From NCBI RefSeq assembly GCF_053078305.1, contig NZ_CP166875.1: 64,000 nucleotides of DNA; one strand, given 5' to 3'. The stretch comes from a plasmid. The position numbers were made by a program, and so were the translations under genes. Below, piece by piece: positions 13,208 to 47,764 of this stretch. Every line of letters starts with the position of its first letter. Within the stretch, counting starts at the first letter, position 1. The notes beneath the pieces are model-generated. The model saw nothing but the letters and a program-made list of their open reading frames with translations. It searched no databases and was not told the DNA's origin.

Positions 13208-16047
13208 ATGAAGTCTATGTGATTGCCGGTGGTGAGTGGTTGCGCAATAACCTGAACGCCATTGCCGCTTTTATGGGGACCCGGACGTGGGATTCCATTG
13301 AAAAAATTGCGCTCACATTATCTGTTCTCGCAGTGGCTGTGATGTGGGTACAACGGCACAACGTGATGGATTTGCTGGGCTGGGTGGCCGTGTTTGTGCT
13401 TATCAGCCTGCTGGTTAATGTCCGCACATCGGTGCAGATTATTGATAACAGTGACCTGGTTAAGGTTCACCGGGTGGACAATGTGCCGGTCGGTCTGGCG
13501 ATGCCACTTTCACTGACGACCCGTATCGGGCATGCGATGGTGGCCGGCTATGAGATGGTGTTCGCTCAGCCGGACAGCGCCACCTACAGCAAGACAGGCA
13601 TGCTGTTCGGGGCGAACCTGATTGTGAAAAGCACCGATTTCCTGTCCCGGAATCCGGAAATCATCAATCTGTTTCAGGACTACGTCCAGAACTGCGTGCT
13701 GGGTGATATTTACCTGAACCATAAATACACGCTGGAAGACCTGATGGCCTCCTCTGACCCGTACACCATAATCTTTTCTCAGCCCAGCCCTTTACGTCAG
13801 GTGCCGAATAATAATTACAGTTTTCTGCAAAGCTCAGAGCCGTTTGTGTCCTGTAAGGACGCATCCGTCGGACTGAAGGATAAGCTGAATTTTGATACGA
13901 ATACCGGAGGCAAGACCTGGAATTATTATGTGCAGCAGATATTTGGCGGCAGGCCGGACCCTGACCTGTTATTCAGACAACTGGTGAGTGACAGTTACAG
14001 TTATTTCTACGGCTCCAGCCAGTCTGCCAGCCAGATTATGCGCCAGAACGTCACCATGAATGCCCTGAAAGAGGGTATCACCAGTAATGCGGCCCGTAAC
14101 GGTGATACCGCCAGCCTGGTGAATCTGGCCACCACCTCATCGATGGAGAAACAGCGTCTGGCACATGTCTCCATTGGTCATGTGCTGATGCGAAACCTGC
14201 CGATGGTACAGACCATTCTGGTGGGCATTACTATTGGTATCTTCCCGCTCCTGGTGCTGGCTGCGGTCTTCAACAAACTGACGCTGTCCGTCCTGAAAGG
14301 CTATGTGTTTGCCCTGATGTGGTTCCAGACTTGGCCGTTGCTGTATGCCATCCTGAACAGTGCCATGACATTCTATGCGAAGCAGAACGGGGCTCCGGTC
14401 GTGCTCTCTGAACTCTCTCAGATACAGCTGAAATACTCCGACCTGGCATCAACCGCAGGTTATCTTTCAGCAATGATCCCCCCTCTGTCATGGATGATGG
14501 TACGAGGCCTTGGTGCCGGATTTTCCAGCGTATACAGCCACTTTGCGTCTTCTTCCATCACGCCAACCGCCAGTGCGGCAGGCAGTGTGGTTGACGGTAA
14601 TTACTCCTACGGCAACATGCAGACGAATAACGTGAACGGCTTCAGCTGGAGCACCAACAGCACCACGTCATTTGGTCAGATGACGCACCAGACCGGTAGT
14701 GGTGCAACCGCCACGCAGACCCGTGACGGCAGTATGGTGATGGACGCCAGTGGGGCAATGTCCCGTTTGCCGGTTGGTATTAATGCAACGCGTCAGATTG
14801 CAGCAGCGCAACAGGAAATGGCCCGGGAGTCGATGAATAAGGCGGAAAGTGCCCTGCATGGTTTCAGCAGCAGTATTGCCAGTGCCTGGAACACACTCAG
14901 CCAGTTTGGCTCTAACCGGGGAAGCAGTGATTCAGTCACCAGTGGCGCTGACAGCACGATGAGCGCGCAGGACTCCATGATGGCCAGCCGTATGCGCAGT
15001 GCGGTGGAAAGCTATGCGAAGGCGCATAATATCAGCGATGAGCAGGCGACAAGAGAACTGGCATCCAGAAGTACGAGAGGTTCTGCGGGGATGTATGGTG
15101 ATGCTCATGCTGAATGGGGGGTTAAACCTAAAATTCTTGGTGTTGGTGGTGGCGCAGGTGTCAGAGGTGGTGGTAGGACAAGTATTGACTGGAATGATGA
15201 GGATGCGCATCAGGCCAGCAGTGGTTCACGGGCCAGCCATGATGCCCGTCATGATATTGATGCCAGAGCTACACAAGACTTTAAAGAAGCAAGCGATTAC
15301 TTTACCAGTCGCAAGGTCAGTGAATCCGGCAGCCATACTGACAATAATGCCGATTCCAGGGTGGACCAGCTTTCTGCAGCCCTGAACTCAGCGAAACAGA
15401 GTTACGACCAGTACACGACGAATATGACCCGCAGCCATGAATATGCTGAAATGGCCTCCCGTACTGAAAGCATGAGTGGGCAGATGAGTGAAGACCTGTC
15501 ACAACAGTTTGCACAGTATGTGATGAAACACGCGCCGCAGGATGCAGAAGCTATTCTGACAAACACCAGTTCACCGGAGATTGCAGAACGTCGTCGGGCA
15601 ATGGCCTGGTCTTTTGTTCAGGAACAGGTACAGCCTGGTGTTGATAACGCCTGGCGTGAATCCCGTGGCGATATCGGTAAAGGAATGGAGAGCGTACCTT
15701 CGGGCGGTGGCAGCCAGGATATTATTGCAGACCATCAGGGGCATCAGGGTATTATTGAGCAAAGAACGCAGGACAGTAATATCCGTAACGATGTGAAGCA
15801 GCAGGTTGATAATATGGTCACAGAATATCGGGGCAATATCGGGGATACTCAGAACAGCATCCACGGCGAGGAAAATATTGTAAGAGGGCAGTATTCTGAA
15901 CTGCAAAATCACCATAAAACAGAGGCATTATCTCAGAATAATAAATATAATGAAGAAAAATCAGCTCAGGAAGGAATGCCCGGTGCTGACAGCCCACAGG
16001 AACTTATGAACAGGGCAAAAGAGTATCAGGATAAGTATAAGCAATAA
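13204..16047 (+). CDS. traG: TraG (mating pair stabilisation / entry exclusion determinant)
   Basis: 947 aa, polytopic N-domain plus hydrophilic C-domain; size and synteny match F TraG. Confidence 0.9.
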   Translation: MNEVYVIAGGEWLRNNLNAIAAFMGTRTWDSIEKIALTLSVLAVAVMWVQRHNVMDLLGWVAVFVLISLLVNVRTSVQIIDNSDLVKVHRVDNVPVGLAMPLSLTTRIGHAMVAGYEMVFAQPDSATYSKTGMLFGANLIVKSTDFLSRNPEIINLFQDYVQNCVLGDIYLNHKYTLEDLMASSDPYTIIFSQPSPLRQVPNNNYSFLQSSEPFVSCKDASVGLKDKLNFDTNTGGKTWNYYVQQIFGGRPDPDLLFRQLVSDSYSYFYGSSQSASQIMRQNVTMNALKEGITSNAARNGDTASLVNLATTSSMEKQRLAHVSIGHVLMRNLPMVQTILVGITIGIFPLLVLAAVFNKLTLSVLKGYVFALMWFQTWPLLYAILNSAMTFYAKQNGAPVVLSELSQIQLKYSDLASTAGYLSAMIPPLSWMMVRGLGAGFSSVYSHFASSSITPTASAAGSVVDGNYSYGNMQTNNVNGFSWSTNSTTSFGQMTHQTGSGATATQTRDGSMVMDASGAMSRLPVGINATRQIAAAQQEMARESMNKAESALHGFSSSIASAWNTLSQFGSNRGSSDSVTSGADSTMSAQDSMMASRMRSAVESYAKAHNISDEQATRELASRSTRGSAGMYGDAHAEWGVKPKILGVGGGAGVRGGGRTSIDWNDEDAHQASSGSRASHDARHDIDARATQDFKEASDYFTSRKVSESGSHTDNNADSRVDQLSAALNSAKQSYDQYTTNMTRSHEYAEMASRTESMSGQMSEDLSQQFAQYVMKHAPQDAEAILTNTSSPEIAERRRAMAWSFVQEQVQPGVDNAWRESRGDIGKGMESVPSGGGSQDIIADHQGHQGIIEQRTQDSNIRNDVKQQVDNMVTEYRGNIGDTQNSIHGEENIVRGQYSELQNHHKTEALSQNNKYNEEKSAQEGMPGADSPQELMNRAKEYQDKYKQ

Positions 16048-20802: not shown

Positions 20803-23800
20803 TGTTGAGTTTCAGCGTTGTTAAATCGGCAGGCAGTGCCGGAAACTATTACACCGACAAGGATAATTACTATGTGCTGGGTAGCATGGGGGAACGCTGG
20901 GCGGGCAAGGGGGCTGAACAGCTTGGGCTGCAGGGCAGTGTTGATAAGGATGTCTTTACCCGTCTTCTGGAGGGGAAGCTGCCGGACGGGGCGGATTTAA
21001 GCCGTATGCAGGATGGCAGTAATAAGCATCGTCCCGGCTATGACCTGACCTTCTCCGCCCCCAAAAGTGTCTCCATGATGGCCATGTTAGGTGGCGATAA
21101 GCGCCTGATTGATGCACATAATCAGGCCGTGGATTTTGCTGTCCGTCAGGTGGAGGCGCTGGCTTCCACACGGGTGATGACGGACGGACAGTCAGAAACG
21201 GTACTGACCGGTAATCTGGTGATGGCACTCTTTAACCACGACACCAGTCGCGATCAGGACCCACAGTTACACACGCATGCGGTGGTGGCTAATGTCACGC
21301 AGCATAACGGCGAATGGAAGACACTGAGCAGTGATAAAGTGGGGAAAACCGGTTTTTCCGAGAACGTGCTCGCGAACCGTATTGCGTTCGGGAAAATATA
21401 TCAGAGTGAGTTACGTCAGCGCGTTGAGGCGCTGGGCTATGAAACTGAAGTGGTGGGTAAGCACGGTATGTGGGAGATGCCGGGCGTACCGGTGGAGGCC
21501 TTTTCCGGACGCTCACAGGCTATCCGGGAGGCCGTCGGGGAAGACGCCTCGCTGAAATCCCGGGATGTGGCGGCACTGGATACGCGAAAATCCAAACAGC
21601 ACGTCGATCCTGAAGTCAGAATGGCTGAATGGATGCAGACGCTGAAGGAAACCGGGTTCGACATCCGGGCGTATCGTGACGCGGCAGACCAACGGGCGGA
21701 GACCCGCACGCAGACACCCGGACCCGCTTCACAGGACGGGCCGGATGTGCAGCAGGCGGTGACACAGGCCATTGCCGGATTAAGTGAACGAAAAGTGCAG
21801 TTCACGTACACGGACGTGCTGGCCAGGACGGTCGGCATACTGCCGCCGGAAGCCGGTGTGATTGAGCGGGCGCGTGCCGGTATCGATGAGGCCATCAGCC
21901 GTGAGCAGCTTATCCCCCTCGACCGTGAGAAGGGGCTGTTCACGTCCGGGATTCATGTGCTCGATGAGCTGTCCGTCCGGGCACTCAGTCGTGACATCAT
22001 GAAACAGAACCGGGTGACTGTACATCCGGAGAAAAGTGTTCCCCGGACGGCCGGTTACAGCGATGCGGTCAGTGTTCTGGCACAGGATCGCCCGTCGCTG
22101 GCCATTGTGTCCGGGCAGGGCGGTGCAGCCGGGCAGCGTGAGCGGGTGGCTGAACTGGTCATGATGGCCCGGGAGCAGGGGCGGGAGGTGCAGATTATTG
22201 CCGCTGACCGTCGCTCACAGATGAACCTGAAGCAGGATGAACGGCTGTCCGGTGAACTGATAACCGGACGTCGTCAGCTGCTGGAAGGCATGCCCTTCAC
22301 GCCGGGCAGTACCGTTATCGTCGACCAGGGCGAAAAACTCTCCCTGAAAGAGACGTTAACCCTGCTGGACGGTGCCGCACGTCATAACGTACAGGTCCTG
22401 ATAACCGACAGCGGGCAGCGAACCGGTACAGGCAGTGCGCTGATGGCCATGAAGGATGCCGGGGTGAACATATATCGCTGGCAGGGGGGAGAGCAGCGAC
22501 CGGCAACCATCATCTGTGAACCGGACCGTAATGTCCGCTATGCCCGGCTGGCCGGAGATTTTGCGGCCAGCGTGAAAGCCGGAGAAGAGAGCGTGGCACA
22601 GGTCAGCGGAGTACGGGAACAGGCCATACTGACACAGGCCATTCGCAGTGAACTGAAAACGCAGGGCGTACTCGGGCAGAGGGAGGTGACCATGACGGTG
22701 CTGTCACCGGTCTGGCTGGACAGCCGGAGTCGTTATCTGCGGGATATGTACCGCCCGGGGATGGTGATGGAGCAGTGGAACCCGGAGACACGCAGTCATG
22801 ACCGCTATGTTATCGACCGGGTGACAGCGCAGAGTCACAGCCTGACCCTGCGGGATGCGCAGGGCGAAACGCAGGTGGTGCGTATATCCTCCCTGGACAG
22901 CAGCTGGTCGTTGTTCCGGCCGGAAAAAATACCGGTGGCAGACGGCGAGCGTCTGAGGGTGACAGGGAAAATTCCCGGACTCCGCGTCTCCGGCGGTGAC
23001 CGCCTGCAGGTGGCATCCGTCAGTGAAGATGCGATGACGGTTGTTGTGCCGGGGCGGGCTGAACCGGCCACCCTGCCTGTGAGCGATTCACCGTTCACGG
23101 CACTGAAGCTGGAGAGCGGCTGGGTGGAAACGCCCGGGCATTCCGTCAGTGACAGTGCGAAGGTTTTTGCCTCCGTCACACAGATGGCAATGGACAACGC
23201 CACCCTGAACGGTCTGGCCCGCAGCGGTCGTGATGTCCGGCTGTATTCCTCACTGGATGAAACCCGTACTGCGGAAAAACTTGCCCGTCACCCCTCCTTT
23301 ACGGTGGTTTCTGAGCAGATAAAGGCGCGTGCCGGTGAGACATTGCTGGAAACCGCTATCAGTCTGCAGAAAGCCGGGCTTCACACGCCGGCACAGCAGG
23401 CCATTCATCTGGCCCTTCCTGTGCTGGAAAGTAAAAACCTGGCCTTCAGCATGGTGGACCTGCTGACAGAGGCGAAGTCGTTTGCTGCAGAAGGAACCAG
23501 TTTTACTGAACTGGGAGGGGAAATCAATGCGCAGATAAAACGCGGTGATTTGCTGTATGTGGATGTGGCAAAAGGCTATGGCACAGGCCTGCTGGTTTCC
23601 CGTGCGTCGTATGAGGCAGAAAAGAGCATTCTTCGCCATATTCTCGAAGGTAAGGAGGCGGTCACGCCGCTGATGGAGAGGGTACCCGGCGAACTCATGG
23701 AGACACTGACGTCGGGGCAGCGTGCCGCCACCCGCATGATACTGGAAACGTCCGACCGTTTCACGGTGGTGCAGGGTTATGCCGGTGTGGGTAAGACCAC

Positions 23801-27324: not shown

Positions 27325-27882
27325 ATGACAGAGCAGAAACGGCCAGTACTGACACTGAAACGAAGAACCGACGTGGAAACACCGACCCGGAGCCGGAAAA
27401 CCATCATCAATGTCACCACGCCACCAAAATGGAAGGTGAAAAAGCAGAAACTGGCGGAGAAGGCTGCCCGGGAAGCAGAGCTGGCGGCGAAGAAAGCACA
27501 GGCCAGACAGGCGCTGTCCATTTATCTGACGCTGCCCTCGCTGGATGAGGCGGTGAACACTCTGAAACCCTGGTGGCCGGGATTGTTTGACGGTAACACG
27601 CCCAGGCTTCTTGCCTGCGGTATCCGGGAGGTTTTACTGGATGAGGTGTCTCAGCGAAATATCCCGCTCTCTCATAAAAAACTCAGCCGGGCGCTGAAAG
27701 CCATCACCCGTTCGGAAAGTTATCTGTGCGCAATGAAAGCCGGCGCCTGCCGCTATGATACGGAAGGCTATGTGACAGAACATATCACACAGGAAGAAGA
27801 ACAGTATGCGCAGGCGCGCCTGGAAAAGGTGCGCAGACAGAACCGGATCAAGGATGAGCTGCGGGCGATCCTGGCTGAATAA
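27325..27882 (+). CDS. finO: FinO fertility inhibition RNA chaperone
   Basis: 185 aa, Lys/Arg-rich N-terminus; position after traX. Confidence 0.88.
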
Positions 27883-28983
27883 TAAAAACGCCCTCTGTAT
27901 GACAGAGGGCAACAGCGAAAAAATCGGGAAAACAGACATCCAGAGTTTTGATGGAGAAAAACACCCAACCGTTCAGGGATGTTTCATAATGTTTCTGACA
28001 TAATCCGGGCGCCGGGTCAAGGGGGGGATAAAAAATGGCTGTATCCAGTGGATTATCTGAGCACAGCGGTATTTATCGCTATCAGCGCGTGGGGCGTCAT
28101 GCCGTCCGTCAGGAGATTCGTGGCTTTTTCAGGGAAGCCGCTGAGGCCTGGCAGAATGCGGCCCGGCTGGCACCCTGTGAAGCATGGCGGGATTTTGCCC
28201 TGAAGAGGGCATCTGCATGCCGGTGTAAGTGCCGATAAAAATAACCCCCGTCGCGGAGCTCCGGGGGATCAGGCTTATATGGCAGATCGTTATTATTATT
28301 ATTATAGTGGTGTAAGAAGGAGTTGCCCTGTCTTTCAAACGGACATCACAGAATTAACATATTTCACCTCCCGGGTAAGCCAGCAGGGATAAAAAATGTG
28401 ATGAATTTCAAGAAGCAGGAGGTGACAGTGGCATGCATAACAGCAGGGTTATCCGGTGAATCTGACAGACAGCCGGGCTGTATTCGCGGCAGGATAAAGA
28501 AAAACCGGGAGATGACTCTCCCGGTCCGTCTTATCGCTAATCCCCTGAGCAGGGCATGTATGACTTATCTATGACCATTATATTCAGCGCCACATCCGGT
28601 AGCCTGCGATATAACACAGTTATCCTGTCAGTAAGAGCAGGTATGATGAATACACGGAGATTAAAAATATAATCTCCGTCACATGTTACCCCCGGAAACC
28701 GGTAACGCCGTCACGGGAAAGACGTGACAGAAAAAGCAGCCTCCGTTACTCCAGGTATCAGAAGGCTGAATAATGCATGAGACTTTCTTTCTTATGTGTC
28801 TGGTCAGGCTGGCTGACCAGCGTTTTTAGTAACACATAGCCATATGTGTATTAAGCCACCTCATCTTATTTTGTTGAATTGATCACAATTCAACGGTTTA
28901 TTTTTGGCGTGATGTGTGAGCCGTTATTCATCCCGGCATGGAATTCATGCAATAACGAAAAGTAATCAGTGACGGAGAGTAAA

Positions 28984-29532: not shown

Positions 29533-29931
29533 ATGAAAGGTGAACAAATGAACTATCAGGCAGTATCAGAATTAATCACATCGTCTAATCATAATGTTCT
29601 TATTGTGGGGGACTCAGCTTCTGAAGTTGATAGCTTTTTAAATAAACTGAATATTACTGATTATAAGTATTATGATTTCAGCCAGATTTACAGTTGTTCT
29701 GACAGAACATTAAATGATTATGCGGTTATTTTTATCAGGGATGCACTGAACGCCAGTGAGCATATTATTATTTTTAATTGTACAGGATGGCCTGATTTGA
29801 ATAATGAATCTGCCGTCATGCAGTTTGCCAGAGTGGCACGAAAATCAGGAAAACAACTGATAGTCGCAGTAAGAGAACAGGATATGAAAAAAATGGAAGC
29901 AGAGTTTGGAAGGATCATAAAAATCCACTGA
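29533..29931 (+). CDS. hypothetical protein
   Basis: 132-aa ORF; stop abuts conserved hairpin element copy 2. Confidence 0.4.
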   Translation: MKGEQMNYQAVSELITSSNHNVLIVGDSASEVDSFLNKLNITDYKYYDFSQIYSCSDRTLNDYAVIFIRDALNASEHIIIFNCTGWPDLNNESAVMQFARVARKSGKQLIVAVREQDMKKMEAEFGRIIKIH

Positions 29932-30005: not shown

Positions 30006-30210
30006 AGTGAAAAGCGGGAAATGGAGGGAATGGTCAGTAACAGGGAATGTGGTATTATCGCGGCGGGTGTCTGAGCCTTTCTGGTTCAGGCAAGACGCAG
30101 GTACTAGAAATGCGAAGACCCCACTTGTTAATCCATTAACTCGTGAGGCCTGCATGAAGTACTTGAACACTACTGATTGTAGCCTCTTCCTTGCAGAGAG
30201 GTCAAAGTTT

Positions 30211-30360
30211 ATGACGAAATATGCCCTTATCGGGTTGCTCGCCGTGTGCGCCACGGTGTTGTGTTTTTCACTGATATTCAGGGAACGGTTATGTGAGCTG
30301 AATATTCACAGGGGAAATACAGTGGTGCAGGTAACTCTGGCCTACGAAGCACGGAAGTAA
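30211..30360 (+). CDS. Hok/Gef-family type I toxin (SrnB/PndA-like)
   Basis: 49-aa peptide with N-terminal TM helix; in-frame upstream leader ORF (from 30154) as in srnB/pnd loci. Confidence 0.8.
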   Translation: MTKYALIGLLAVCATVLCFSLIFRERLCELNIHRGNTVVQVTLAYEARK

Positions 30361-30643
30361 GCTGCCGGGCGGGGACGGAAGTCCCCGCTTTCCGGAAGTG
30401 TGAGGTATTTCAGGGGCAGACACCCGACATGCCAGAAACCGCCGGTCCCGCCCGGGGCCGGCACACAGGTTAAGGCATTTCCTGTTTTTCAGCCATTTCG
30501 CAACAAAAATCACATTAAACAACAGTAATCACCGTTGATTTGTGCGCCAACACAGATCTTCGTCACAATTCTCAAGTCGCTGATTTCAAAAAACTGTAGT
30601 ATCCTCTGCGAAACGATCCCTGTTTGAGAATTGAGGAGGCGAG

Positions 30644-30904
30644 ATGTCGCAGACAGAAAATGCAGTGACTTCCTCATTGAGTCAAAAGCGGTTTGTGCGC
30701 AGAGGTAAGCCTATGACTGACTCTGAGAAACAAATGGCCGCTGTTGCAAGAAAACGTCTTACACACAAAGAGATAAAAGTTTTTGTCAAAAATCCTCTGA
30801 AAGATCTCATGGTTGAGTACTGCGAGAGAGAGGGGATAACACAGGCTCAGTTCGTTGAGAAAATCATCAAAGATGAACTGCAGAGACTGGATATACTAAA
30901 GTAA
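30644..30904 (+). CDS. copB: CopB/RepA2 transcriptional repressor of repA
   Basis: 86 aa, matches remembered R100/R1 CopB; RBS gaggagg. Confidence 0.9.
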
Positions 30905-31024
30905 AGACTTTACTTTGTGGCGTAGCATGCTAGATTACTGATCGTTTAAGGAATTTTGTGGCTGGCCACGCCATAAGGTGGCAGGGAACTGGTTCTGATG
31001 TGGATGTACAGGAGCCAGAAAAGT

Positions 31025-31115
31025 GAAAACCCCGATAATCTTCTTTAACTTTGGCGAGTGAGAAAGATTACCGGGGCCATCTAAAAACCGTATAGCCAAC
31101 AATTCAGCTATGCGG
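31025..31115 (-). ncRNA. copA: CopA antisense RNA (approximate bounds)
   Basis: CopT target motifs recognisable on + strand; exact ends not determinable by eye. Confidence 0.4.
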
Positions 31116-31128: not shown

Positions 31129-31203
31129 ATGCCCGGAAAAGTTCAAGACTTCTTTCTGTGCTCGCTCCTTCTGCGCATTGTAAGTGCAGGATGGTGTGAC
31201 TGA
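31129..31203 (+). CDS. tap: Tap/RepA6 leader peptide coupled to repA1
   Basis: 24-aa peptide [24 protein letters not shown]; stop overlaps repA1 start region. Confidence 0.7.
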
Positions 31204-32053
31204 TCTTCAACAAACGTATTACCGCCAGGTAAAGAACCCGAATCCGGTGTTTACACCCCGTAAAGGTGCCGGAACGCTGAAGTTCTGCGAAAAACTGATG
31301 GAAAAGGCGGTGGGCTTCACCTCCCGTTTTGATTTCGCCATTCATGTGGCGCATGCCCGTTCGCGTGGTCTGCGTCGACGCATGCCACCGGTGCTGCGTC
31401 GACGGGCTATTGATGCGCTGCTGCAGGGGCTGTGTTTCCATTATGACCCGCTGGCCAACCGCGTCCAGTGTTCCATTACCACACTGGCCATTGAGTGCGG
31501 ACTGGCGACAGAGTCCGGTGCAGGAAAACTCTCCATCACCCGGGCCACCCGGGCCCTGACGTTCCTGTCAGAGCTGGGACTGATTACCTACCAGACGGAA
31601 TATGATCCGCTTATCGGGTGCTACATTCCGACCGATATCACGTTCACACCGGCGCTGTTTGCCGCCCTTGATGTGTCTGAGGATGCAGTGGCAGCTGCGC
31701 GCCGCAGCCGTGTGGTATGGGAAAACAGACAGCGCAAAAAGCAGGGGCTGGATACCCTGGGTATGGATGAGCTGATAGCGAAAGCCTGGCGTTTTGTCCG
31801 TGAGCGTTTCCGCAGTTACCAGACAGAGCTTAAGTCCCACGGCATGAAACGTGCCCGTGCGCGCCGCGATGCAGGCAGAACCCGCCAGGACATTGTCACC
31901 CTGGTGAAACGGCAGCTGACGCGTGAAATCGCGGAAGGGCGTTTCCGGGGAAGCCTGGAGGCCGTGAAGCGCGAAATCGACCGTCGTGTGAAGGAACGCA
32001 TGATAATGTCGCGTAACAACAACTACACACGGCTGGCCACTGCCTCCCCCTGA
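31196..32053 (+). CDS. repA1: RepA1 replication initiator (RepFIIA)
   Basis: GTG start at 31196; 285 aa; near-identical to remembered R100 RepA1. Confidence 0.92.
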
Positions 32054-32897: not shown

Positions 32898-32988
32898 ATA
32901 AACAACAAGTTGCTACATTAGCTTACAGGTTAATTCACCTTGCATAAGATTAGCATATAGGTTAATGTTTATCGAAATGGGAGGTCAT

Positions 32989-33318
32989 ATGTTTAGCGTT
33001 GTTTATCACCCGGAAGCCAGGGAAGAAGCCACAGCATTACCCATAAAAATCAGGGTGAAGTTTGACCGTCTCATCAGCAAACTGGAATATGACGCCCGAT
33101 TACTGCGGGAACCGGATACAAAGCCCCTGGGGGATGGACTTTTTGAGATCCGCACGATGGGGACGGACATAGCCAGAGGCATCTGGGTATACCACAAAGG
33201 CAATACCATCATCATGCTCCGGGTTTTCATCAAGAAGTCTCAGAAAACGCCAGCAAAAGAAATCGATCTCGCCAAAAAGCGGTTAGCGGAGGTACTTAAT
33301 GAAACTGGTAAGCCATAA
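32989..33318 (+). CDS. RelE/ParE-superfamily toxin (HigB-like, toxin-first order)
   Basis: ATG at 32989 preceded by gggagg; ~109 aa; overlaps downstream HTH gene. Confidence 0.65.
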   Translation: MFSVVYHPEAREEATALPIKIRVKFDRLISKLEYDARLLREPDTKPLGDGLFEIRTMGTDIARGIWVYHKGNTIIMLRVFIKKSQKTPAKEIDLAKKRLAEVLNETGKP

Positions 33319-33580
33319 AGAACTGCATAACGAGTGGATGCAGGACGACGAATATCGCGCTGCATGGCAGGAAGAAGAACGTAAGGAGAAACTCAGGGAG
33401 TTGCTTGCAGAATGGCGTAAGCATGACAATTTGACAAAAGCGCAGGTTGCTGAACGCATGGGGGTTACTCCTCCTGTTATTTCCCGCCTGGAAAACAACA
33501 TCACTAAAGCCAGCATCGACACCCTGACTCGCTATGCCCATGCGTGCGGTATCAAAAAACCTGTTATTACGCTGTACTGA
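33299..33580 (+). CDS. HTH (XRE-type) antitoxin, HigA-like
   Basis: 93 aa with helix-turn-helix segment. Confidence 0.65.
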   Translation: MKLVSHKELHNEWMQDDEYRAAWQEEERKEKLRELLAEWRKHDNLTKAQVAERMGVTPPVISRLENNITKASIDTLTRYAHACGIKKPVITLY

Positions 33581-33768
33581 ACTCTGCTCTATGGCTGCCA
33601 GTTCTGGAGAAATCAGTAACTAAATTTTAATTAGCTACGTTATGGTAAATCTGCCTGATGTGTCGATTTCTCTGAAAGTAATTCGGCTTCTGTGGGCTGC
33701 GTTTGCCTTGTGCCACCTGAATGTAATCACTATGATTAAATATGATTAACAACTAATCGGATATACAA

Positions 33769-34047
33769 ATGAAAAACAATACCGCACAGGCAACAAAAGT
33801 AATTACCGCGCATGTGCCATTACCTATGGCTGATAAAGTCGACCAGATGGCCGCCAGACTGGAACGCTCCCGGGGCTGGGTTATCAAACAGGCACTTTCT
33901 GCATGGCTTGCCCAGGAGGAGGAGCGTAATCGCCTGACGCTGGAAGCCCTGGACGATGTGATATCCGGACAGATTATCGACCATCAGGCTGTACAGGCCT
34001 GGGCAGACAGCCTCAGTACTGACAATCCGTTACCGGTTCCACGCTGA
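33769..34047 (+). CDS. RHH/CopG-type antitoxin (ParD/RelB-like)
   Basis: 92 aa; one-base overlap with downstream toxin gene. Confidence 0.7.
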   Translation: MKNNTAQATKVITAHVPLPMADKVDQMAARLERSRGWVIKQALSAWLAQEEERNRLTLEALDDVISGQIIDHQAVQAWADSLSTDNPLPVPR

Positions 34048-34322
34048 TGGAACTGAAGTGGACCAGTAAGGCGCTTTCTGATTTGGCGCGGTTATATGAT
34101 TTTCTGGTGCTGGCCAGTAAACCTGCCGCCGCCAGAATGGTACAGTCCCTGATACAGGCACCGGTCATTCTGTTAACTCATCCACGTATGGGAGAACAGT
34201 TGTTTCAGTTTGAACCCAGGGAGGTCAGACGGATTTTTGCTGGCGAGTACGAAATCCGTTACGAACTTAATGGGCTGCGTTTGGGAAACGTACAATATTG
34301 TACGGTTGCGCTATTGCGGTAG
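34047..34322 (+). CDS. RelE/ParE-family toxin
   Basis: 91 aa with RelE/ParE-like C-terminal motifs. Confidence 0.75.
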   Translation: MELKWTSKALSDLARLYDFLVLASKPAAARMVQSLIQAPVILLTHPRMGEQLFQFEPREVRRIFAGEYEIRYELNGLRLGNVQYCTVALLR

Positions 34323-34505
34323 GGTGTACTCCAACGCTATACGGTATTTGGCAGACCTTTAGGGACATGAGATAACCTAAATGCAATAAGAGAAAAGCAA
34401 TAACTTAAAGGCGATAGCTGATCACGATGAATCAATCAGTTACTTATCCGCATCGATTAAAAAATGCTCCTAACGTACAATAATTCCGTTTCCCAAACCG
34501 ACCCC

Positions 34506-34779
34506 TCAGTGTTCTGGCTGGAAGTCCTCAGTACACGCTCGTAAGCGGCCCTGACGGCCCGCTAACGCGGAGATACGCCCCGACTTCGGGTAAACCCTCG
34601 TCGGGACCACTCCGACCGCGCACAGAAGCTCTCTCATGGCTGAAAGCGGGTATGGCTTAACAGGGTGGGAATGGGATAGGCGAAATCTATCAATCAGTAC
34701 CGGCTTACGCCGGGCTTCGGCGGTTTTACTCCGGTATCACATGTAACCACAGCGTACCGCCTTCCATGCCGCTGGCGCG
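34506..34779. repeat. ~270-bp direct repeat, copy 2
   Basis: Near-identical to 32624..32897. Confidence 0.85.
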
Positions 34780-34847
34780 GCATATCATGGTGACGATATC
34801 TGAATCGTTATATACTGTGTATATACGTGGTAATGACGAGGTGATAA

Positions 34848-34940
34848 ATGGCACAGGTTAATATGAGTTTAAGAATCGACGCTGAACTGAAGGATGCTTT
34901 TATGGGGTCAGCCTGGAATTCGGAAAATAAACCACGTTAA
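34848..34940 (+). pseudogene. RelB/DinJ-like antitoxin N-terminal fragment
   Basis: 30-codon ORF MAQVNMSLRIDAELKDAF... resembling the RHH strand of RelB/DinJ, ending prematurely. Confidence 0.35.
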
Positions 34941-35112
34941 GACTATTTTTTAGCCAAATGACTGTCAGGAATCCGGACGGTCGGAACATTTCGTACAGCC
35001 TTTACGTTCAGTGAGTTAGCTGGCCTGGATGTAACCACTCGTTCAACTCAATTCTCTTAGCGTGGGAAAATTTCCGTTTTCCAAGCGGACCCCTAGAAGA
35101 AGGGAAGCGATA

Positions 35113-35529
35113 TCAAGCCCAGGGATTAATAATTGATACTCCGGTTAATTCAAAATCACCAACATTTCTGGTTACAACCGTCATCCCATGTACCAGCGCC
35201 GTTGCTGCGATCAATGCGTCTCGTTCACTGCGCCTGTCGGGAACATGTAAACGAGAACAACGTAATGCAACCGCAGTATCTACAGGAAGTATCTTATCAG
35301 AAAACGCTGGTAACACATGCTGATCCATCCAAGAACGTAGCATAATCCCTTGTCGCATATCTCGACGTTCAACTTGTAATATTCCCTGTTCAAGTTCCAT
35401 TATGGAAATAACAGAAATAAAGAAATCTGCCGCATCTGTATGCAATACCCATTTTGCAACATTATTATCTATACGTCCTGTCCGAGCCTTCCGTAGCTCA
35501 GAGATAACATTAGTATCAAGAATATACAC
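35113..35529 (-). CDS. vapC: VapC PIN-domain toxin (VagD-like)
   Basis: 138 aa, MYILDTNVISE N-terminus typical of PIN domain. Confidence 0.85.
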   Translation of the reverse strand: MYILDTNVISELRKARTGRIDNNVAKWVLHTDAADFFISVISIMELEQGILQVERRDMRQGIMLRSWMDQHVLPAFSDKILPVDTAVALRCSRLHVPDRRSERDALIAATALVHGMTVVTRNVGDFELTGVSIINPWA

Positions 35530-35783
35530 TATAAAAACTCCGCAGGTTTTAAACTAACCGTAATACGAGGCGGTTCAAATTCAACTGCATCAGCATCGGG
35601 CATCGCCAGAATGTCAATGAGAGTTCGTCGTTGTTGCGTCAATTTTCGGTATTCTTCGATACTAAGAAGTACATGTGCGGTTTTACCCCGATCAGTAATA
35701 AATACTGGACCATAATTCGTGGCGCGTTTGGCTCGAGTTACATCTTGATTAAGTTCCCGACTGGATAGGGTTGTAATCTTCAT
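35529..35783 (-). CDS. vapB: VapB antitoxin (VagC-like)
   Basis: Start at MKITTL inside ORF 35529..35843; one-base overlap with vapC. Confidence 0.8.
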   Translation of the reverse strand: MKITTLSSRELNQDVTRAKRATNYGPVFITDRGKTAHVLLSIEEYRKLTQQRRTLIDILAMPDADAVEFEPPRITVSLKPAEFL

Positions 35784-35942
35784 GCTGTTGCCTTTTGATG
35801 TATATAGGTACGTTACTACATTGTAGGGCATGAAATAGTACAATGCAAGAAATGTACTTGATTAGGGGTAGTCTTCGCCGCTTGTTGCTGTCAGATATTA
35901 ATGCTAATGTATGCATACATTAGCATTAATGAGGGATGATAT

Positions 35943-40448: not shown

Positions 40449-40796
40449 TTATATGCGGATTCCAGCGCGTTCCGTTCGTTTCGGGTGCTTCCAGTTGATA
40501 CCTTCAAGAAGCATGGATAACTGAGCCGGAGTAAGGTGCACCTTGCCGTCACGGGTGACTGGCCAGACGAAGCGGCCCCGCTCCAGGCGTTTGGTGAAGA
40601 GGCACAGTCCGTCACTGTCAGCCCACAACACTTTTATCTGGTCACCCCGGCGTCCGCGGAAGATGAACAGGTGTCCGGAGAACGGGTCATCCTTCAGGAC
40701 GTTCTGAACTTTTGATGCCAGGCCGTTAAAGCCATTTCGCATATCGGTGATACCTGCAACCAGCCAGATACGCGAACCTGCAGGGAGAGATATCAT
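40449..40796 (-). CDS. IS66 Orf2 (TnpB)
   Basis: 115 aa, characteristic IS66 orf2 sequence. Confidence 0.8.
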   Translation of the reverse strand: MISLPAGSRIWLVAGITDMRNGFNGLASKVQNVLKDDPFSGHLFIFRGRRGDQIKVLWADSDGLCLFTKRLERGRFVWPVTRDGKVHLTPAQLSMLLEGINWKHPKRTERAGIRI

Positions 40797-41473
40797 CAGT
40801 GGCTGCTCCCTTTTATTTCGCGGATAAGTGTCTGTAATAACGCCGGCGTCAGTTTACCTTTAAGCCTGAGAGTTCCGGCCGGCAGAACCAGCTCACAACA
40901 CAGACTGTCGGACGGTGTATTTATCTGCTCTGGTTCCTGTGCGGGGGCCGGGATTTTATTATCCGGCTCCGGCGTTAACGTCACGGGAAGCAGTGCCGGC
41001 ATATTTTTTCCGGAAGGCAGCAGGCCACCTTTCCGGTATTGATGGCGCCAGTTGAAGAGCAGGTTATCGTTGATTCCGTTTTCCCGGGCGATCTGCGCCA
41101 CACAGGCTCCGGGCTGCAGTGACTGCTCCACTAAGGCGATTTTAAACTCATAAGGGAAGTTGGGCCGCCGGGGACGTTTTTTTACCACGGGGGCTTCGGA
41201 TATAACGGTGCTTTCAGGACGTACGACTGGTACCGTGGAAAATTGTCCGTAAAGGCAGGCATCAAGTTCCTGCTCCGACATGCCTGCGGGCAAAGGCCAC
41301 GAAAGGCCAGCTCTCCGAAAGCGCACGAACATACTACAAACTGTTGATTTTGGTACACCCAGGCGACGCCCGGCCACAACCCGGGGTAAATGTTCTTCAA
41401 AGTGAAGACGTAAAGCTTCAGTGATCCAGGTCCGGTGTTTCATACGATAGTGTCCATTAAAAATGATGGACAT
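40796..41473 (-). CDS. IS66-family Orf1-like accessory protein
   Basis: 225-aa ORF immediately upstream of orf2 with overlapping stop/start. Confidence 0.55.
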   Translation of the reverse strand: MSIIFNGHYRMKHRTWITEALRLHFEEHLPRVVAGRRLGVPKSTVCSMFVRFRRAGLSWPLPAGMSEQELDACLYGQFSTVPVVRPESTVISEAPVVKKRPRRPNFPYEFKIALVEQSLQPGACVAQIARENGINDNLLFNWRHQYRKGGLLPSGKNMPALLPVTLTPEPDNKIPAPAQEPEQINTPSDSLCCELVLPAGTLRLKGKLTPALLQTLIREIKGSSH

Positions 41474-41849
41474 TATTTTTGTAGAGCCGGAGGAAACAGA
41501 CCAGACGGTTTAAATGAGCCGGTTACAAACAAATTCGCTTCATAAATTTCATAGTGCAGACCACATCCCCAATGAGCCTGCTTTTCCAGCCTGCTGATCA
41601 CCACATCAGCCCGGATAACATCAAAGGGATTGCGGGAATGAATATTACGAATAAAGCCATCGGTACGTGCTGCTGACATATTTCTGCCCATCTTTAATAC
41701 ACCTCTGTTTTTTGCCCCCATCATCTGTTGAGTTTCGGGAGCCGCGGTTTTGACGTTTTGCGGGGACCTGCCTTTTGTTCCCTCCGGTATTCACCATCAC
41801 CTGTTTGAGAACCTTCGCCGCAAGGGGCATCACTGCCACGGCCGGAAAC

Positions 41850-42160
41850 GACTGTCCGGGGGCAGACCGCAAAAGTTTTTGCCTGCTTTTGGGCAAAAAG
41901 TTTTGCGGGATGTGCATTTCACCCCTGGACTGGCGGAGACGGTTGTGGCTGTCTTTGCCCCCGGCGACAGGGGCTTAAACAGGTGTATGGCACCGGACAC
42001 AACAACGGGCAGGGACCCGCCGCAACGACGAAGAGCGCGTGCGCGAAACGGCGTTGCCCCTTACATCCCGGCGGCCTTTTGCCGGGATGCCAGGAGCGCA
42101 GGCCACGGCGCGACAGAGGCGGCGCGACCGGAACGGTCGCTGCAAGCCCGGGGTTTCGCG
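41850..42160 (-). promoter_or_regulatory. Frpo/ssi-like structured single-strand promoter region, copy A
   Basis: GC-rich non-coding block sharing motifs (CTGTCCGGGGGC, GAGCGCAGGCCACGGCGCGACA, GTCGCTGCAAGCCCGG) with the region upstream of ssb. Confidence 0.5.
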
Positions 42161-42583
42161 TCAGGGATGGAAGCCCGCCAGGGCGGAGACAGCTTCGCTG
42201 GCTCCGTTCACGACAGCCCGCCCCGCCTGGGGGACGCCCGGAAAAGGCATAAGCAGGAGAACAACAAAACAGACAATAATCAGGGCAGCAGTAATCAGAG
42301 TCAGAACAGGAGGAAAAAGAGAATAATCAAAGGGAAGGTGATGTGATTTCCGACAGGTCATAAACAGAGAAGGCGGGGGAAAAGAACGGGCGCCGCAGGC
42401 GCGCGTTCATCCCCGTTCCCGGAGGGAATCGGCCTTCCTGGCAGTCTGGTTGTTCATGCTGCTGCAATGTCAGCAAGGAGAAAGGGGCCACCGGCGAACC
42501 AGCAGCCCCTTTATAAAGGCGCTTCAGTGCAGTCAGACCAGCATCAGCCCTGAAAAGGCGGGCCTGCGCCCGCCTCCAGGTTG

Positions 42584-42742
42584 CTACTTACCGGATTCGT
42601 AAGCCATGAAAGCCGCCACCTCCCTGTATCCGTCTCTGTAACGAATCTCGCACAGCGATTTTCGTGTCAGATAAGTAAATATCAACAGTGTGAGACACAC
42701 AATCAACACACACCAGACAAGAGAGCTGCGTGGTAGTTTCAT
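42584..42742 (-). CDS. hok: Hok type I toxin (flmA/hok-type)
   Basis: 52-aa peptide [52 protein letters not shown]; overlapping upstream leader ORF. Confidence 0.85.
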
Positions 42743-43016
42743 GGCCTTCTTCTCCTTGCGCAAAGCGCGGTAAGAGGCTATCCTGATGTTGTCAGACATA
42801 TGGGATGCCTCGTGGGTTAATGAAAAATTAACTACGGGGCTATCTTCTTTCTGCCACACAACACGGTAACAAACCACCTTCACGTCATGAGGCAGAAAGC
42901 CTCAAGCGCCGGGCACATCATAGCCCATATACCTGCACGCTGACCACACTCACTTTTCCTGAAAATAACCCGCTCATTCAGGCTGTTTACGGGTAATCTG
43001 TGTGATTGTTGCCGCA

Positions 43017-43736
43017 TCACGCCGCCTCCCGGAGTTTGTTCGGCACCATCCACCGCTCCATCTCACGGACAGCGTGACCCGCCTCCCTTGCTGCCATACC
43101 TGCCTCTGCGATGACCTGCCAGAATGGCATATCCTGCCACTGCCAGCGTTCCATCCCGGCCAGTGACGGAAAACGCTCACCCCACTGCCAGAACAGGGTT
43201 TCCAGGTCATGCTCTGCCACCCGGTCACTCCAGCGTGCATACCAGCTTCCGACTGTTTCCGGTGAATGGAACGCCAGTTCGATTTCAGCCTGAGCGACCA
43301 GCGTCTGGTACGCACGGGCTTTCTGCTCTGCCTCCCGTGCCTGCTGGCGGCTGTACTTCTGCATGACCAGCACGGATTTATGGCGACTGCGTTCCCTGAC
43401 ACGGAACCGCACCGACGGGAACAACCGCTCTGCTGCATCACCGGGAAGGGGAAGGAGGCAGACCTCGCCCTGTGTTTCAATCAGCACATCGACGGCATAC
43501 AGCCACTGAGAACGGTTGCCGCGCAGTTCTTCTGCGGTCAGGGACGGCATGAAAAATCGCAGGTCAGACAGCGAAATCCTGCGGCTTCCGTTCAGACAGC
43601 GGAAAAACGCCCCCGCATACGGATATTCCGCCAGCGTGTTACCCTGGTGGCGGCGTTTTTCTGTCTCCGCCACCGCCCGCCATGCGGCCTGTTGCTCTGT
43701 GCTGAGAGGAACCAGTGCCTGTGAACGTGCGCTCAT
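43017..43736 (-). CDS. psiA: PsiA
   Basis: 239 aa; position immediately after psiB as in F leading region. Confidence 0.88.
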
Positions 43737-44167
43737 GCCTGACCTCCTTCCGCCATCAGGATATGGATGATGTCACTGACGCTGTATCCCTGTTCATCCA
43801 GTGATGCCGCCAGTGCCAGTGAATGGCTGACAGCTTCCGGTGCAAACCGCCGCTGCACCTGAACCACCGCAAACGGCTCACCACCGGCATTCACCAGAAC
43901 CAGCACCCAGACCTGAGAGACATCGCCCGGTGAACATAACGCCAGGTGAAAACGTTCGTGGGCAGGCGTGAAACGGACCTGGACGGGGAAAAAGCCGCCG
44001 AACTCGCTGCCGTACTCGCCATTCATCGTCCAGTTGTCCGGCGCATCCAGTTCCCGCATCACGGCGTGTGTCAGCTCACGGCGTTCATCACTTCCGGCAG
44101 CCCGGATATCTTCATATTCCTGTGCGCTCATGGTCTGTAATACATTCAGGGTCAGTTCAGTTTTCAT
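43733..44167 (-). CDS. psiB: PsiB plasmid SOS inhibition protein
   Basis: Start at MKTELT preceded by gggaga; 144 aa. Confidence 0.9.
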
Positions 44168-44221
44168 CACGGTATCTCCCTTGCTGCCGCCCCGTCTCCG
44201 GCGGGGCGGTGTGGTTGTTCA

Positions 44222-46180
44222 TCAGGCGGCATCAGCCAGGTTATCGGCGCGTTCAGTGGCATCCGTCTGTGGACGTGGTGAACCCATCCAGCCAGGCACC
44301 CAGCGGTTGTCTTTCATGTGGAACTCTGCATGTTCAGCGGCATCGCCTTTCTTCATCTTCTCCGCGTCCCGTGCGGCACCGGACAGTCCGGCATCATTCA
44401 GGGCATCGATAATCTGCGGCTTTTTCAGGTGACCGAAGAAGTTTGCTTTTGTCGGCTGCCACCAGTCACGCATGTGAAAGCCGATGGCGCTCTCCAGCGA
44501 GTCCAGCGGACTGCGTGACGTGTGACCATACTCGCGGGTCTGAACGCCGTGGATGCTGCACGCGGTGCAGAAACTGAGCAGTGATAACAGCACGTCCTGG
44601 CTGAGTGACAGGAACGTCGTCATGTCCCGTGCCCATCCCTCCGGTAACAGGGCAGCAAGACGGGCTTTTTCTGCCATCATCGCCATGAATGCGGCACCGT
44701 CCTTCCCCGATGGCGCATCGCTGGTCAGCGAATAATGTTTACATTCCAGGCTGATTTGTGCTGGTTTACTGTACGCTCCGCTGCCAAACACATTCAGGCA
44801 GAGCGTCCATGCCAGCAGTGCCAGAGATTTGTCCGGTTGCTGCATGAGTGCCGCCTGGACTGCCAGCGTGCGTTCGGAAGACATTTTCGTCAGCAGTGGC
44901 AGACTGATTTCCTCCACTGACGCTTTCTCCTGCACCTGTTCCGTGCGGTCAGCGTCGTCAGTCACGTCATCTTCACTGCGCAACTGCACACCACGCTGGA
45001 CACACACATTACCGTAACGCCAGGACACCACCACGCCACTTCCGGCACGCATCTCCGGCGTCCACGCCCTGACCTTCGCCATGCAGTCAATCAGCTTCAT
45101 TTCTGCTGCCAGCAGGTCAGATTCCTCACACTGGTTTTCCAGCGCGTCGTAACGCATCATCAGTTCGTTCAGGCGTTCTTCTTCTGCCTCCGTCAGCACC
45201 GCTTCCGGCTCCGGCAGGTTGCGGTATGCCCGGGAATCTTCACGGCACTCACCGACAGGCTCCATGCGTCCGGCGCACCATTCCCAGCCTTCGGCTTCCC
45301 GAAGGTGTTCAGCGACAGCCTGGAGTTTTTCCAGCAGGGCGGCATCGAGCGCCACGCAGTCCACATAGCCACCCTCGTCATCGCTGAACAAATCAGTACG
45401 CAGTTCGTCAGGTGAGAAAGCATCAGCCCCCACGAAGCGGAATTTAGTGTTGTCCTTCACCGCCACTTCACTTTCCGTAATCAGATTGCGGATAACCCGC
45501 ACATCCGGTTTACCGCCCCATCCTGACTGGCAGGCCGCTTCAAACACCTGCACCTGACGCGCGGTGTCGTTCTCCAGCGCCAGCGCCTGACAGTGCTCGG
45601 TGGTGATGCGGTCTTCTGCCAGCGCATCGAGGATGACAGGCGCAAGGTCTGCCAGTTTCAGCATTCGCTGAACGTGGCGGGGCGAATAACCCAGCAAATC
45701 ACCGATTTGTGCAGGTGTTTTGCCTTCCTGCGCCATTGCACGGAATCCGGCAATCTGTTCGGCAGGGTGCATATCCCGACGATGACCGTTCTCGGTCATC
45801 GATGCGGCAGTCGCCAGCTCCTGCGGAATGACCTTCACACGGACAGGCCAGTCAACCTGAATGATGTCACGCTCTGCCAGCATGTTGAGTGCTGCCAGTC
45901 GGCGACCACCTGCGGCGACACCGTAACGGTCACCTGGCAGGGCATGAACAACCAGATTCTGTAACAGGCCGACACCTTTAATGGAGTCCGCCAGTTCGCT
46001 GACGGACTCCGCAGAATACGGCACCGTGCGCACATTCAGCGGAGACTTAATCAGCGAGGCCAGCGGCACGCTCACTTCCTCCGTCTGCGCCAGCAGGGCC
46101 GACAGGACTGTTTCCTGCGTTTTTGCAGGTTTACGGCTGGATTTACGCTCCGTTTTTGCCTTAGACTCTGTAACTGACAT
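44222..46180 (-). CDS. ParB-like nuclease-domain protein of the leading region
   Basis: Start at MSVTESKAK preceded by gggagg; 652 aa; ParB/Srx-like N-terminal region. Confidence 0.75.
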   Translation of the reverse strand: MSVTESKAKTERKSSRKPAKTQETVLSALLAQTEEVSVPLASLIKSPLNVRTVPYSAESVSELADSIKGVGLLQNLVVHALPGDRYGVAAGGRRLAALNMLAERDIIQVDWPVRVKVIPQELATAASMTENGHRRDMHPAEQIAGFRAMAQEGKTPAQIGDLLGYSPRHVQRMLKLADLAPVILDALAEDRITTEHCQALALENDTARQVQVFEAACQSGWGGKPDVRVIRNLITESEVAVKDNTKFRFVGADAFSPDELRTDLFSDDEGGYVDCVALDAALLEKLQAVAEHLREAEGWEWCAGRMEPVGECREDSRAYRNLPEPEAVLTEAEEERLNELMMRYDALENQCEESDLLAAEMKLIDCMAKVRAWTPEMRAGSGVVVSWRYGNVCVQRGVQLRSEDDVTDDADRTEQVQEKASVEEISLPLLTKMSSERTLAVQAALMQQPDKSLALLAWTLCLNVFGSGAYSKPAQISLECKHYSLTSDAPSGKDGAAFMAMMAEKARLAALLPEGWARDMTTFLSLSQDVLLSLLSFCTACSIHGVQTREYGHTSRSPLDSLESAIGFHMRDWWQPTKANFFGHLKKPQIIDALNDAGLSGAARDAEKMKKGDAAEHAEFHMKDNRWVPGWMGSPRPQTDATERADNLADAA

Positions 46181-46245
46181 AGTTAGTACCTCCCAAAACG
46201 GTAATAATGATTGTCTGCCGGACGCGTTCCCGTCCGGCACCTCTC

Positions 46246-46521
<276 letters not shown>

Positions 46522-46536
46522 TCACAGTCAGGCCAG

Positions 46537-47064
46537 TCAGAACGGGATATCGTCTGAAAATCCGTAATCCTCCCCCTCCGGCGGCTGAGGCTGAGGCTCG
46601 GGCTGCGCGGCCTTACGTCCACGGCCTTTCGTTTTCGCGCCACTTTTTTTCGTCGCGTCAGCACTCTGTGGCTGCCCATTCTGCTGAGGCTGCGGTTGTG
46701 CCTGAGCGTTCTGCTGTGGTGCAATCCCCAGCATCTGCATGGTGCCCGTGGTCTTAACAAGAATTTCAGTGACGTAACGGGTGATACCGTTATCTTCCCA
46801 GCTACGGGTTCGGAGTTGCCCCTCGATATAGACCTGCGCGCCCTTGCGCAGATATTCACCAGCCACTTCCGCGAGCTTGCCGAACAGCACCACGCGGTGC
46901 CATTCCGTCTGCTCCCGCATCTCCCCCGTCTTTTTGTCGCGCCAGCTTTCTGATGTGGCCACCTGCAGGTTTGCCACTGCGCCCCCGTTGGGGATGTAAC
47001 GGACCTCCGGATCATTGCCCAGACGCCCGACGAGGATGACCTTGTTGATACCACGTGCACTCAT
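46537..47064 (-). CDS. ssb: plasmid single-stranded DNA-binding protein
   Basis: OB-fold N-domain, Gln/Pro-rich linker and acidic C-terminal DDIPF tail. Confidence 0.92.
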
Positions 47065-47227
47065 GAGAACCTCCTGACTGAAAGATGTGAGATAAACCGG
47101 ATACCGGAGACGGGACGTTCATATGCCCCTTCAGAGGAGCGAAAGCTCCTCCTGCCGTCCACTTCTTCGGGGTTTCTCCCCGCAGTGGACCTTTCCGATG
47201 GGGGCCCGTTTACCGCCTCACGGGACA

Positions 47228-47452
47228 GCTGTCCGGGGGCGGACGCAAAATTTTTTGCCGGGTTCATGGCTAAAAATTTTGTGGCCGGTATATCTTCCCC
47301 TGGACTGATGGAACGGGAGGTGGTTACGTCTGCCCCCCGGAAAGTCCACAGCGGGAAACAGGCCGCAGAGGTGGCGGCAGAAGAGGAGCGCAGGCCACGG
47401 CGCGACAAAGGCGGCGCGACCGTTCCGGTCGCTGCAAGCCCGGGTTTTCACG
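47228..47452 (-). promoter_or_regulatory. Frpo/ssi-like structured single-strand promoter region, copy B, upstream of ssb
   Basis: Homologous to 41850..42160; non-coding, GC-rich, hairpin-rich. Confidence 0.55.
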
Positions 47453-47764
47453 CATCGGACCGTAGCGACAGCCCGAAACCGCGCCAGCGGGTTCGGCGGA
47501 GACTGGCGGGTGCGCCAGCAGTTGCCTGTCGGAGTCGGGCCTGACGACCGGATGCCGCCAGGCAGCCGGGAGCCGAAGGGGCGCATGTGTAAGAAGGTTC
47601 TTTAACGACAGGTCTGTAACAGGTACTTCCTGAAACAACGCCTGTCACCAACAGGAAGGGTAACGGGCGACGCGCCAGCGTGGCCCGCATCCCTTCCGGC
47701 AGGCGCCAGCCTGCCAGGGGTTTTCGCGCGGGCTGACAGGCGGCCTCCACCGCCTACCCCTGTA

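Follow-up and report, generated by a model that had tools for sequence, protein, structure and literature searches.

The window analyzed here, a 64,000-nucleotide stretch of plasmid DNA taken at its full length, almost certainly contains two type I toxin-antitoxin cassettes of the hok/sok family, each intact and independent of the other, which, judged from their sequence, are the counterparts of srnB/srnC and of flm (hok/mok/sok) on plasmid F. The SrnB-type toxin ORF (30211..30360, + strand) encodes 49 amino acids between an ATG at 30211 and a TAA at 30358-30360, while the flmA-type hok ORF (42584..42742, - strand) encodes 52 amino acids between an ATG at 42742 and a TAG at 42586-42584; neither is interrupted. 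Local comparison with NC_002483 shows that the SrnB peptide is 100% identical to the plasmid F product at 2926-3072 and that the Hok peptide is likewise 100% identical to FlmA/Hok of F (F 62976-63131). Both peptides exceed the cutoff of 22 bits for the Pfam family HOK_GEF (PF01848), with scores of 36 bits for SrnB and 73.7 bits for Hok. The hok product also reaches 125 bits against the NCBIfam Hok subfamily NF007279 (cutoff 73), whereas SrnB, at 33 bits, falls under the cutoff of that subfamily yet remains above that of Pfam. At the RNA level, the Rfam family RF01794 (gathering score 59) matches both loci, at 30065-30221 (+) for srnB with 94.6 bits (E 5e-20) and at 42740-42911 (-) for hok with 87.2 bits (E 4.6e-18). 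An earlier, sequence-only reading of this DNA had proposed two different Hok-family type I loci on one replicon, and the intact ORFs, the Pfam and Rfam matches and the identity with F bear it out.

Small ORFs and RNA motifs could in principle be chance features of an intergenic region of mixed AT and GC content. Nothing favors that explanation beyond the short length of the ORFs, and it deserves no credence in view of the Rfam E-values, the complete identity of both peptides with characterized toxins and the thousands of homologous plasmid loci. PLSDB has 2,915 records with an srnB-type locus and more than 5,000 with one of hok type. Neither tblastn nor an Rfam scan run over the whole window with permissive settings revealed a third Hok-type locus. 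The one weak candidate, an SrnB tblastn match at 5140-5262 (-) with an E-value of 0.019, was set aside as chance because it has no matching ORF of at least 30 aa and no Rfam signal. The window contains exactly two such loci, neither of which is a chance feature.

Genomic setting and kinship with known systems

The srnB cassette lies between the FinO and nuclease genes on one side and the CopB-CopA-RepA genes of the RepFII replicon on the other, the full order being FinO (27325-27882), a thermonuclease gene, a 132-aa ORF, the srnB cassette, CopB (30644-30904), CopA RNA (31021-31111, -) and RepA (31184-32053). This agrees with the earlier placement of an SrnB-type toxin beside the replicon at 30211..30360. 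The span of 30154-30360 originally assigned to the locus holds for the leader and toxin coding part only; the whole cassette on the + strand extends from ~30031 to 30430, possibly to ~30495. Past hok, psiA (43017-43736), psiB, a ParB-like gene and ssb follow on the - strand, so that the flmA-type toxin at 42584..42742 does lie in the leading-region block, as the sequence-only reading had it.

Both cassettes have close relatives in the same surroundings elsewhere. The srnB/srnC locus of plasmid F, attributed to Nielsen et al. 1991 in PMC4147584 and bioRxiv 10.1101/2025.08.07.668861, is 97.6% identical in DNA over 464 nt that take in the two promoters, tac and fbi as well as the leader ORF. The difference amounts to 11 point substitutions, of which two in the upstream part of the leader are synonymous. 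The two srnB loci share a site between finO and the copB/repA2 genes of an FII-type replicon, which in F adjoins the RepFIC copB/tap genes. Upstream of the srnB promoter, however, the sequence is unrelated to F, and the window instead has the nuclease gene and the 132-aa ORF. For hok, the F flm locus, with flmA positioned in the leading region after psiB, is 95.8% identical in DNA to its counterpart in the window. In F flm and R1/R100 hok/mok/sok (parB), the promoters, tac/fbi, ucb, 3' hairpin and terminator are conserved at 96.5% DNA identity, and both adjoin psiA, as in the window. The Hok peptide of R100 differs from that of the window at a single residue, where Y38 in the window is H in R100 (TAC/CAC codon).

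That an IncF replicon carries two different Hok-family loci is already known and is a textbook arrangement; F itself has this pair at the corresponding sites, and both are found on many IncF plasmids. In one published table, "hok-sok, srnBC" were recorded together in 16 of the 17 tabulated F33:A-:B- plasmids (PMC6052338). Since srnB/srnC and hok/sok belong to the standard IncF backbone, the significance of the pair beyond correct annotation is small.

Several further features of the window may be recorded alongside the two cassettes. Three type II toxin-antitoxin pairs lie between RepFII and a Tn3-family transposon (32965-35843): a Gp49 (HigB-like)/HTH pair at 32965-33580, an RHH (CopG)/ParE pair at 33769-34322 and a Phd/PIN pair at 35113-35843 (-). 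Together with the two type I systems, this brings the number of addiction modules to at least five within ~13 kb, a load of five or more on the plasmid that is relevant to plasmid curing. The 132-aa ORF (29533-29931) immediately before the srnB promoter matches no Pfam family; at the corresponding position upstream of srnB, a related STEC plasmid carries an annotated hypothetical protein (384 nt). In the tra region, the segment 3094-6817 has no counterpart in F, and a hydrophobic 110-aa ORF within it (5042-5374) has no Pfam match. Further Rfam antisense families score above their gathering thresholds, namely AS-pc02 at 28665-28807 (-), AS-traI at 23651-23727 (-) and AS-traG at 13944-14029 (-); the names of the families refer to antisense RNAs of traI, traG and pHK01_099.

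Anatomy and predicted folds of the toxin mRNAs

The promoter of the srnB mRNA (30031..30058, +), called by a promoter scan, consists of TGGTCA, a 16-nt spacer and TG-TATTAT. The first position of the Rfam model, 30065, comes 7 nt after the end of the -10 box, and the promoter stretch is identical in F. The full-length mRNA is accordingly drawn at 30065..30429 (+), with a start at ~30065, the first model position, and an approximate 3' end. Its 5'-terminal tac element GGGTGTCTG (30065-30073, +) is the perfect complement of the fbi element CAGACACCC near the 3' end (30417-30425, +). Between them lie the ucb element CCCC (30119-30122, +), the leader Shine-Dalgarno (SD) sequence GAGG (30145-30148, +), 5 nt before the leader ATG, and a G+C-rich 3' roadblock hairpin (30367-30390, +). 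The leader ORF, srnB', is the analogue of mok (30154..30360, +); it comprises 68 aa in frame with srnB, and its ATG lies 57 nt upstream of the toxin ATG. A homologous srnB leader ORF is annotated by RefSeq as a 68-aa Hok/Gef family protein.

The hok cassette on the - strand contains the same elements. Its mRNA promoter (42917..42946, -; TGGTCA, 18-nt spacer, TATGAT), also found by the promoter scan and conserved in F and R100, precedes a predicted mRNA of 42476..42910 (-) that would start at 42910, with ends good to a few nucleotides. Tac GGCGCTTGAG (42910-42901, -) is followed by the ucb element CCCC (42839-42836, -), the leader SD GAGG (42811-42808, -), 8 nt before the leader ATG, and a leader ORF in the position of mok (42584..42799, -) of 71 aa, in frame with hok from an ATG at 42799. 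Downstream are the 3' roadblock hairpin (42576-42555, -), fbi CTGAAGCGCC (42527-42518, -) and the terminator (42512-42476, -). The hok mRNA of plasmid R1 occurs as isoforms of 441, 398 and 361 nt (PMC1635323), and the layout of the window hok mRNA agrees with these lengths.

Minimum free energy (MFE) folds of the two full-length mRNAs are closed by blunt pairing between their ends. In the srnB mRNA, nt 1-9 pair with fbi at nt 353-361, with an unpaired probability of at most 0.01; in the hok mRNA, nt 1-10 pair with fbi at nt 384-393, with an unpaired probability of at most 0.10. In both MFE folds the SD sequence GAGG is paired with CCCC, which matches the SD/anti-SD pairing of R1 (PMC9841398). 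The tac/fbi helices themselves covary between the two loci, with compensatory changes in both partners at four of nine pairs (C-G to G-C, G-C to U-A, C-G to G-C and U-A to C-G). Such covariation is the basis of the published hok-family folding model. When the mRNAs are truncated at the 3' end, MFE folding predicts that the 5' hairpin forms in both srnB and hok and that the SD stays paired; thermodynamic prediction alone does not reproduce the published open form, in which tac pairs with ucb and the SD is released or pairs with dcb. This outcome is regarded as neutral with respect to the mechanism below, whose refolding step is therefore taken from the literature.

Predicted antisense RNAs, proposed mode of action and the strand of the Rfam model

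On the strand opposite srnB, a candidate srnC promoter (30176..30205, -) combines TTGACC, an 18-nt spacer and TACAAT (30181-30176), agrees with the consensus at 10 of 12 positions and is identical in F. With the start placed 7 nt after the -10 box, at ~30169, the predicted SrnC RNA spans 30105..30169 (-), a length of ~65 nt whose ends are accurate to within a few nucleotides. It would start with a 14-nt 5' tail whose sequence is complementary to leader codons 1-5, continue in a long stem-loop that spans the SD and ATG of the leader, and end in a U-rich tail; its predicted folding energy is -21.5 kcal/mol, with a z-score of -3.83.

The corresponding sok promoter (42756..42784, +; TTGCGC, 17-nt spacer, TATCCT at 42779-42784) was read from the sequence, as the promoter scanner did not call it: it agrees with the consensus at 8 of 12 positions, under the threshold of that program. 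In alignment, both hexamers are nonetheless unchanged in F, R100 and two other plasmids (L007 and L008), and a divergent locus (L006) has a single change in the -35 box, to TTGCGT. The 5' end of Sok could be placed through the anti-Sok peptide nucleic acid PNA-1, TATGTCTAGTC, of which the 11-nt tail at the 5' end of R1 Sok is the complement (PMC1635323). Mapped onto the alignment with R100, which served as the R1-type reference sequence, the PNA-1 site sets the start 7 nt after the -10 box, at G42791 in the window. The predicted Sok RNA (42791..42850, +; ~60 nt, ends within a few nucleotides) begins with an 11-nt 5' tail, GUCAGACAUAU, which is followed by a stem-loop and then by U-rich sequence; it covers both the leader SD and the initial 9 nt of the leader ORF. 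This is the geometry of E. coli K-12 sokC, which is annotated as a 59-nt RNA on the opposite strand over the first 9 nt of mokC. For the stretch 42792-42856, folding yields -23 kcal/mol (z-score -4.27). Folded as sense strands, the two antisense stretches reach z-scores of only -2.5 and -2.1, compared to -4.27 and -3.83 for the antisense strands.

At both loci, then, an opposite-strand promoter is present, and a short, structured antisense RNA is predicted to overlap the leader start. The sequence-only reading had anticipated short opposite-strand transcripts overlapping the leaders, and had staked its case on antisense promoters being present and the toxin ORFs undisrupted; the promoters are in place, the ORFs are intact and the predicted folds have z-scores of -3.8 and -4.3.

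The two antisense RNAs are predicted to be specific for their own targets. The 5' tails pair with their own mRNA at -27.2 and -22.7 kcal/mol, and with the other locus at only -11.5 and -7.3 kcal/mol; on this modeling the two systems should be insulated from one another, and cross-talk between srnB and hok should not be expected. Cross-regulation was rejected on two further grounds, namely that Sok can be aligned with SrnC at no more than 46 of 75 columns and that neither tail pairs with the target site of the other locus. Such insulation is in line with a report that R1 hok escapes repression by Sok RNAs of chromosomal origin (PMC9841398). One stretch of complementarity does occur away from the target site, where the Sok tail UCAGACAU (42792-42799) can form 8 bp, seven Watson-Crick pairs and one G-U pair, with tac of the srnB mRNA (30066-30073) at -11.5 kcal/mol. 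This match between the Sok tail and the 5' end of srnB is probably due to chance.

A mode of action for both cassettes can be proposed from the characterized homologues of R1, F and R483 (PMC9841398, PMC1635323, PMC4147584). The stable full-length mRNA would be closed by tac/fbi pairing while the CCCC box holds the leader SD, so that neither ribosomes nor antisense RNA could bind. Slow 3' trimming to the roadblock hairpin would then free the 5' end, allowing the mRNA to refold and expose the leader start. As long as the plasmid is present, the constitutive promoter on the opposite strand would supply short, unstable SrnC or Sok, whose 5' tail would bind the refolded leader start and block leader translation, and thereby the coupled translation of the toxin, with RNase III cutting the resulting mRNA/antisense duplex. 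Upon plasmid loss the antisense RNA would decay first, leader and toxin would be translated, and the small membrane peptide would kill the cell. Post-segregational killing, rifampicin-induced killing and RNase III duplex cleavage have been demonstrated for the homologues on F and R1 (PMC4147584, PMC1635323), and it is by analogy with this literature that RNA half-lives, 3' processing, refolding, RNase III cleavage and killing may be assigned to the cassettes in the window.

For annotation, the strand of the Rfam model is of practical consequence. At both loci the match to RF01794 lies on the toxin-sense strand, and the model ends with the AUG of hok as its final three positions. The model therefore describes the mRNA leader and not the antisense RNA, and its "sok" matches were ruled out as antisense coordinates. 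An Rfam scan had been suggested earlier as a check for Sok- and SrnC-type RNAs; it does yield strong matches at both loci, but in the sense orientation, which leaves the delimiting of Sok and SrnC to other evidence. Pipelines that copy an RF01794 match as a feature would put "sok" on the wrong strand and with the wrong length, and users of such annotation should be aware that an Rfam "sok" match denotes the sense-strand leader. RefSeq-style annotation omits both antisense RNAs; Sok and SrnC features are absent from the two RefSeq E. coli plasmid records inspected (L001 and L002), and PLSDB gene tables hold no RNA genes at all. The predicted coordinates given above now delimit Sok and SrnC for annotation. 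The toxin genes are also affected, as RefSeq hok CDSs in related plasmids are often N-terminally truncated, to 33-41 aa instead of 52; shortened calls were seen at 14073-14198 in L001, 13009-13134 in L004, 7401-7526 in L005, 212-334 in L006, 215-316 in L007 and 6276-6377 in L008.

The hok leader allele and its surroundings

The sequence-only reading assigned an in-frame leader to each toxin, and the two leader ATGs, at 30154 and 42799, each lie 57 nt upstream of the respective toxin start. The srnB leader is in frame in F too. For hok, in contrast, the frame is a feature of this allele and distinguishes it from the R1 and F prototypes: the distance from leader ATG to hok ATG is 57 nt in the window and 58 nt in F and R100, where the additional nucleotide puts the leader in the +1 frame and yields a 70-aa Mok (DUF5431). 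In the window a TGA closes the classical Mok frame, of which only the C-terminal 41 codons retain a match to DUF5431. Published mutations in R1 show the mok start codon to include positions 117-118 (T117C, G118T) and the hok start codon to include position 176 (G176T) (PMC9841398), consistent with the 58-nt spacing measured in R100. Over ~20 nt, the region of the leader start and Sok tail represents a third allele beside the R1 type and the F type, and the stretch 42791-42830, covering the leader start and the Sok 5' tail, has the appearance of a mosaic in which R1-type and F-type sequences are combined. The predicted Sok tail of the window is GUCAGACAUAU, whereas R1 has GACUAGACAUA.

An in-frame leader is not new in itself. 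In E. coli K-12 hokC/mokC/sokC (gef) the leader likewise begins in frame 19 codons (57 nt) upstream, and the hok allele of the window occurs at an identity of at least 99% in 108 PLSDB plasmids, as a minority allele that was seen directly in two of them. K-12 hokC differs in being chromosomal, in its toxin sequence and in being reported without post-segregational killing (bioRxiv 10.1101/2025.08.07.668861). Mutagenesis has shown that what matters is that mok be translated as far as the start region of hok, not the Mok product (PMC9841398); by this analogy the in-frame leader would be expected to work.

These departures from the prototypes bear on whether one or both cassettes might be inactive relics, akin to several chromosomal hok loci, that can neither kill nor stabilize the plasmid. 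Chromosomal hokA, hokB and hokC proved unable to bring about post-segregational killing (bioRxiv 10.1101/2025.08.07.668861), the leader start region of the window hok is rearranged with respect to F and R100, and an IS66-family element cuts the leading region ~0.9 kb beyond hok. Yet the insertion sequence lies outside the cassette and homology with F continues to window position 41703; moreover, none of the known elements is damaged, both toxins have the sequence of functional F proteins, and the hok allele has been kept in those 108 plasmids. Inactivity of either cassette is consequently very improbable, and two intact systems remain the preferred interpretation.

The block to which hok belongs has itself been reorganized. 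Relative to tra, the leading-region block at 40449-52849 (hok, psiA, psiB, the parB-like gene, ssb and onwards, corresponding to F 64016 down to 52573) has the reverse of its orientation in F, and it ends at ~41.7 kb against IS66-family genes (TnpB_IS66, 40449-40796). The inversion and the IS66 boundary mean that the hok of the window is unlinked from its usual oriT-proximal genes. This arrangement has a bearing on the idea that the cassettes are functional but that the leading-region hok acts mainly early after conjugative entry, in establishment or in defense and anti-defense. A passage of bioRxiv 10.1101/2025.08.07.668861, citing Samuel et al. 2024, reports hok/sok in the leading regions of conjugative plasmids and suggests such an early role in establishment, and in the window hok indeed lies directly beside psiA, psiB and ssb. 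However, with the block inverted and IS66 separating it from the oriT-proximal genes, hok may not be among the first DNA to enter the recipient, and post-segregational killing is the only function experimentally shown for flm and hok (PMC4147584). A role mainly upon entry is hence unlikely, and plasmid maintenance by post-segregational killing is the function favored here for both cassettes.

The hok allele may, finally, be considered as a functionally distinct variant, one in which ribosomes initiating at the leader ATG would produce a 71-aa N-terminally extended Hok and no separate Mok, and whose Sok tail, unlike those of R1 and F, would define a separate antisense specificity class. This is conceivable, though we consider it doubtful. 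If it were true, a distinct Sok specificity could let related IncF plasmids coexist without cross-neutralizing each other's killers.
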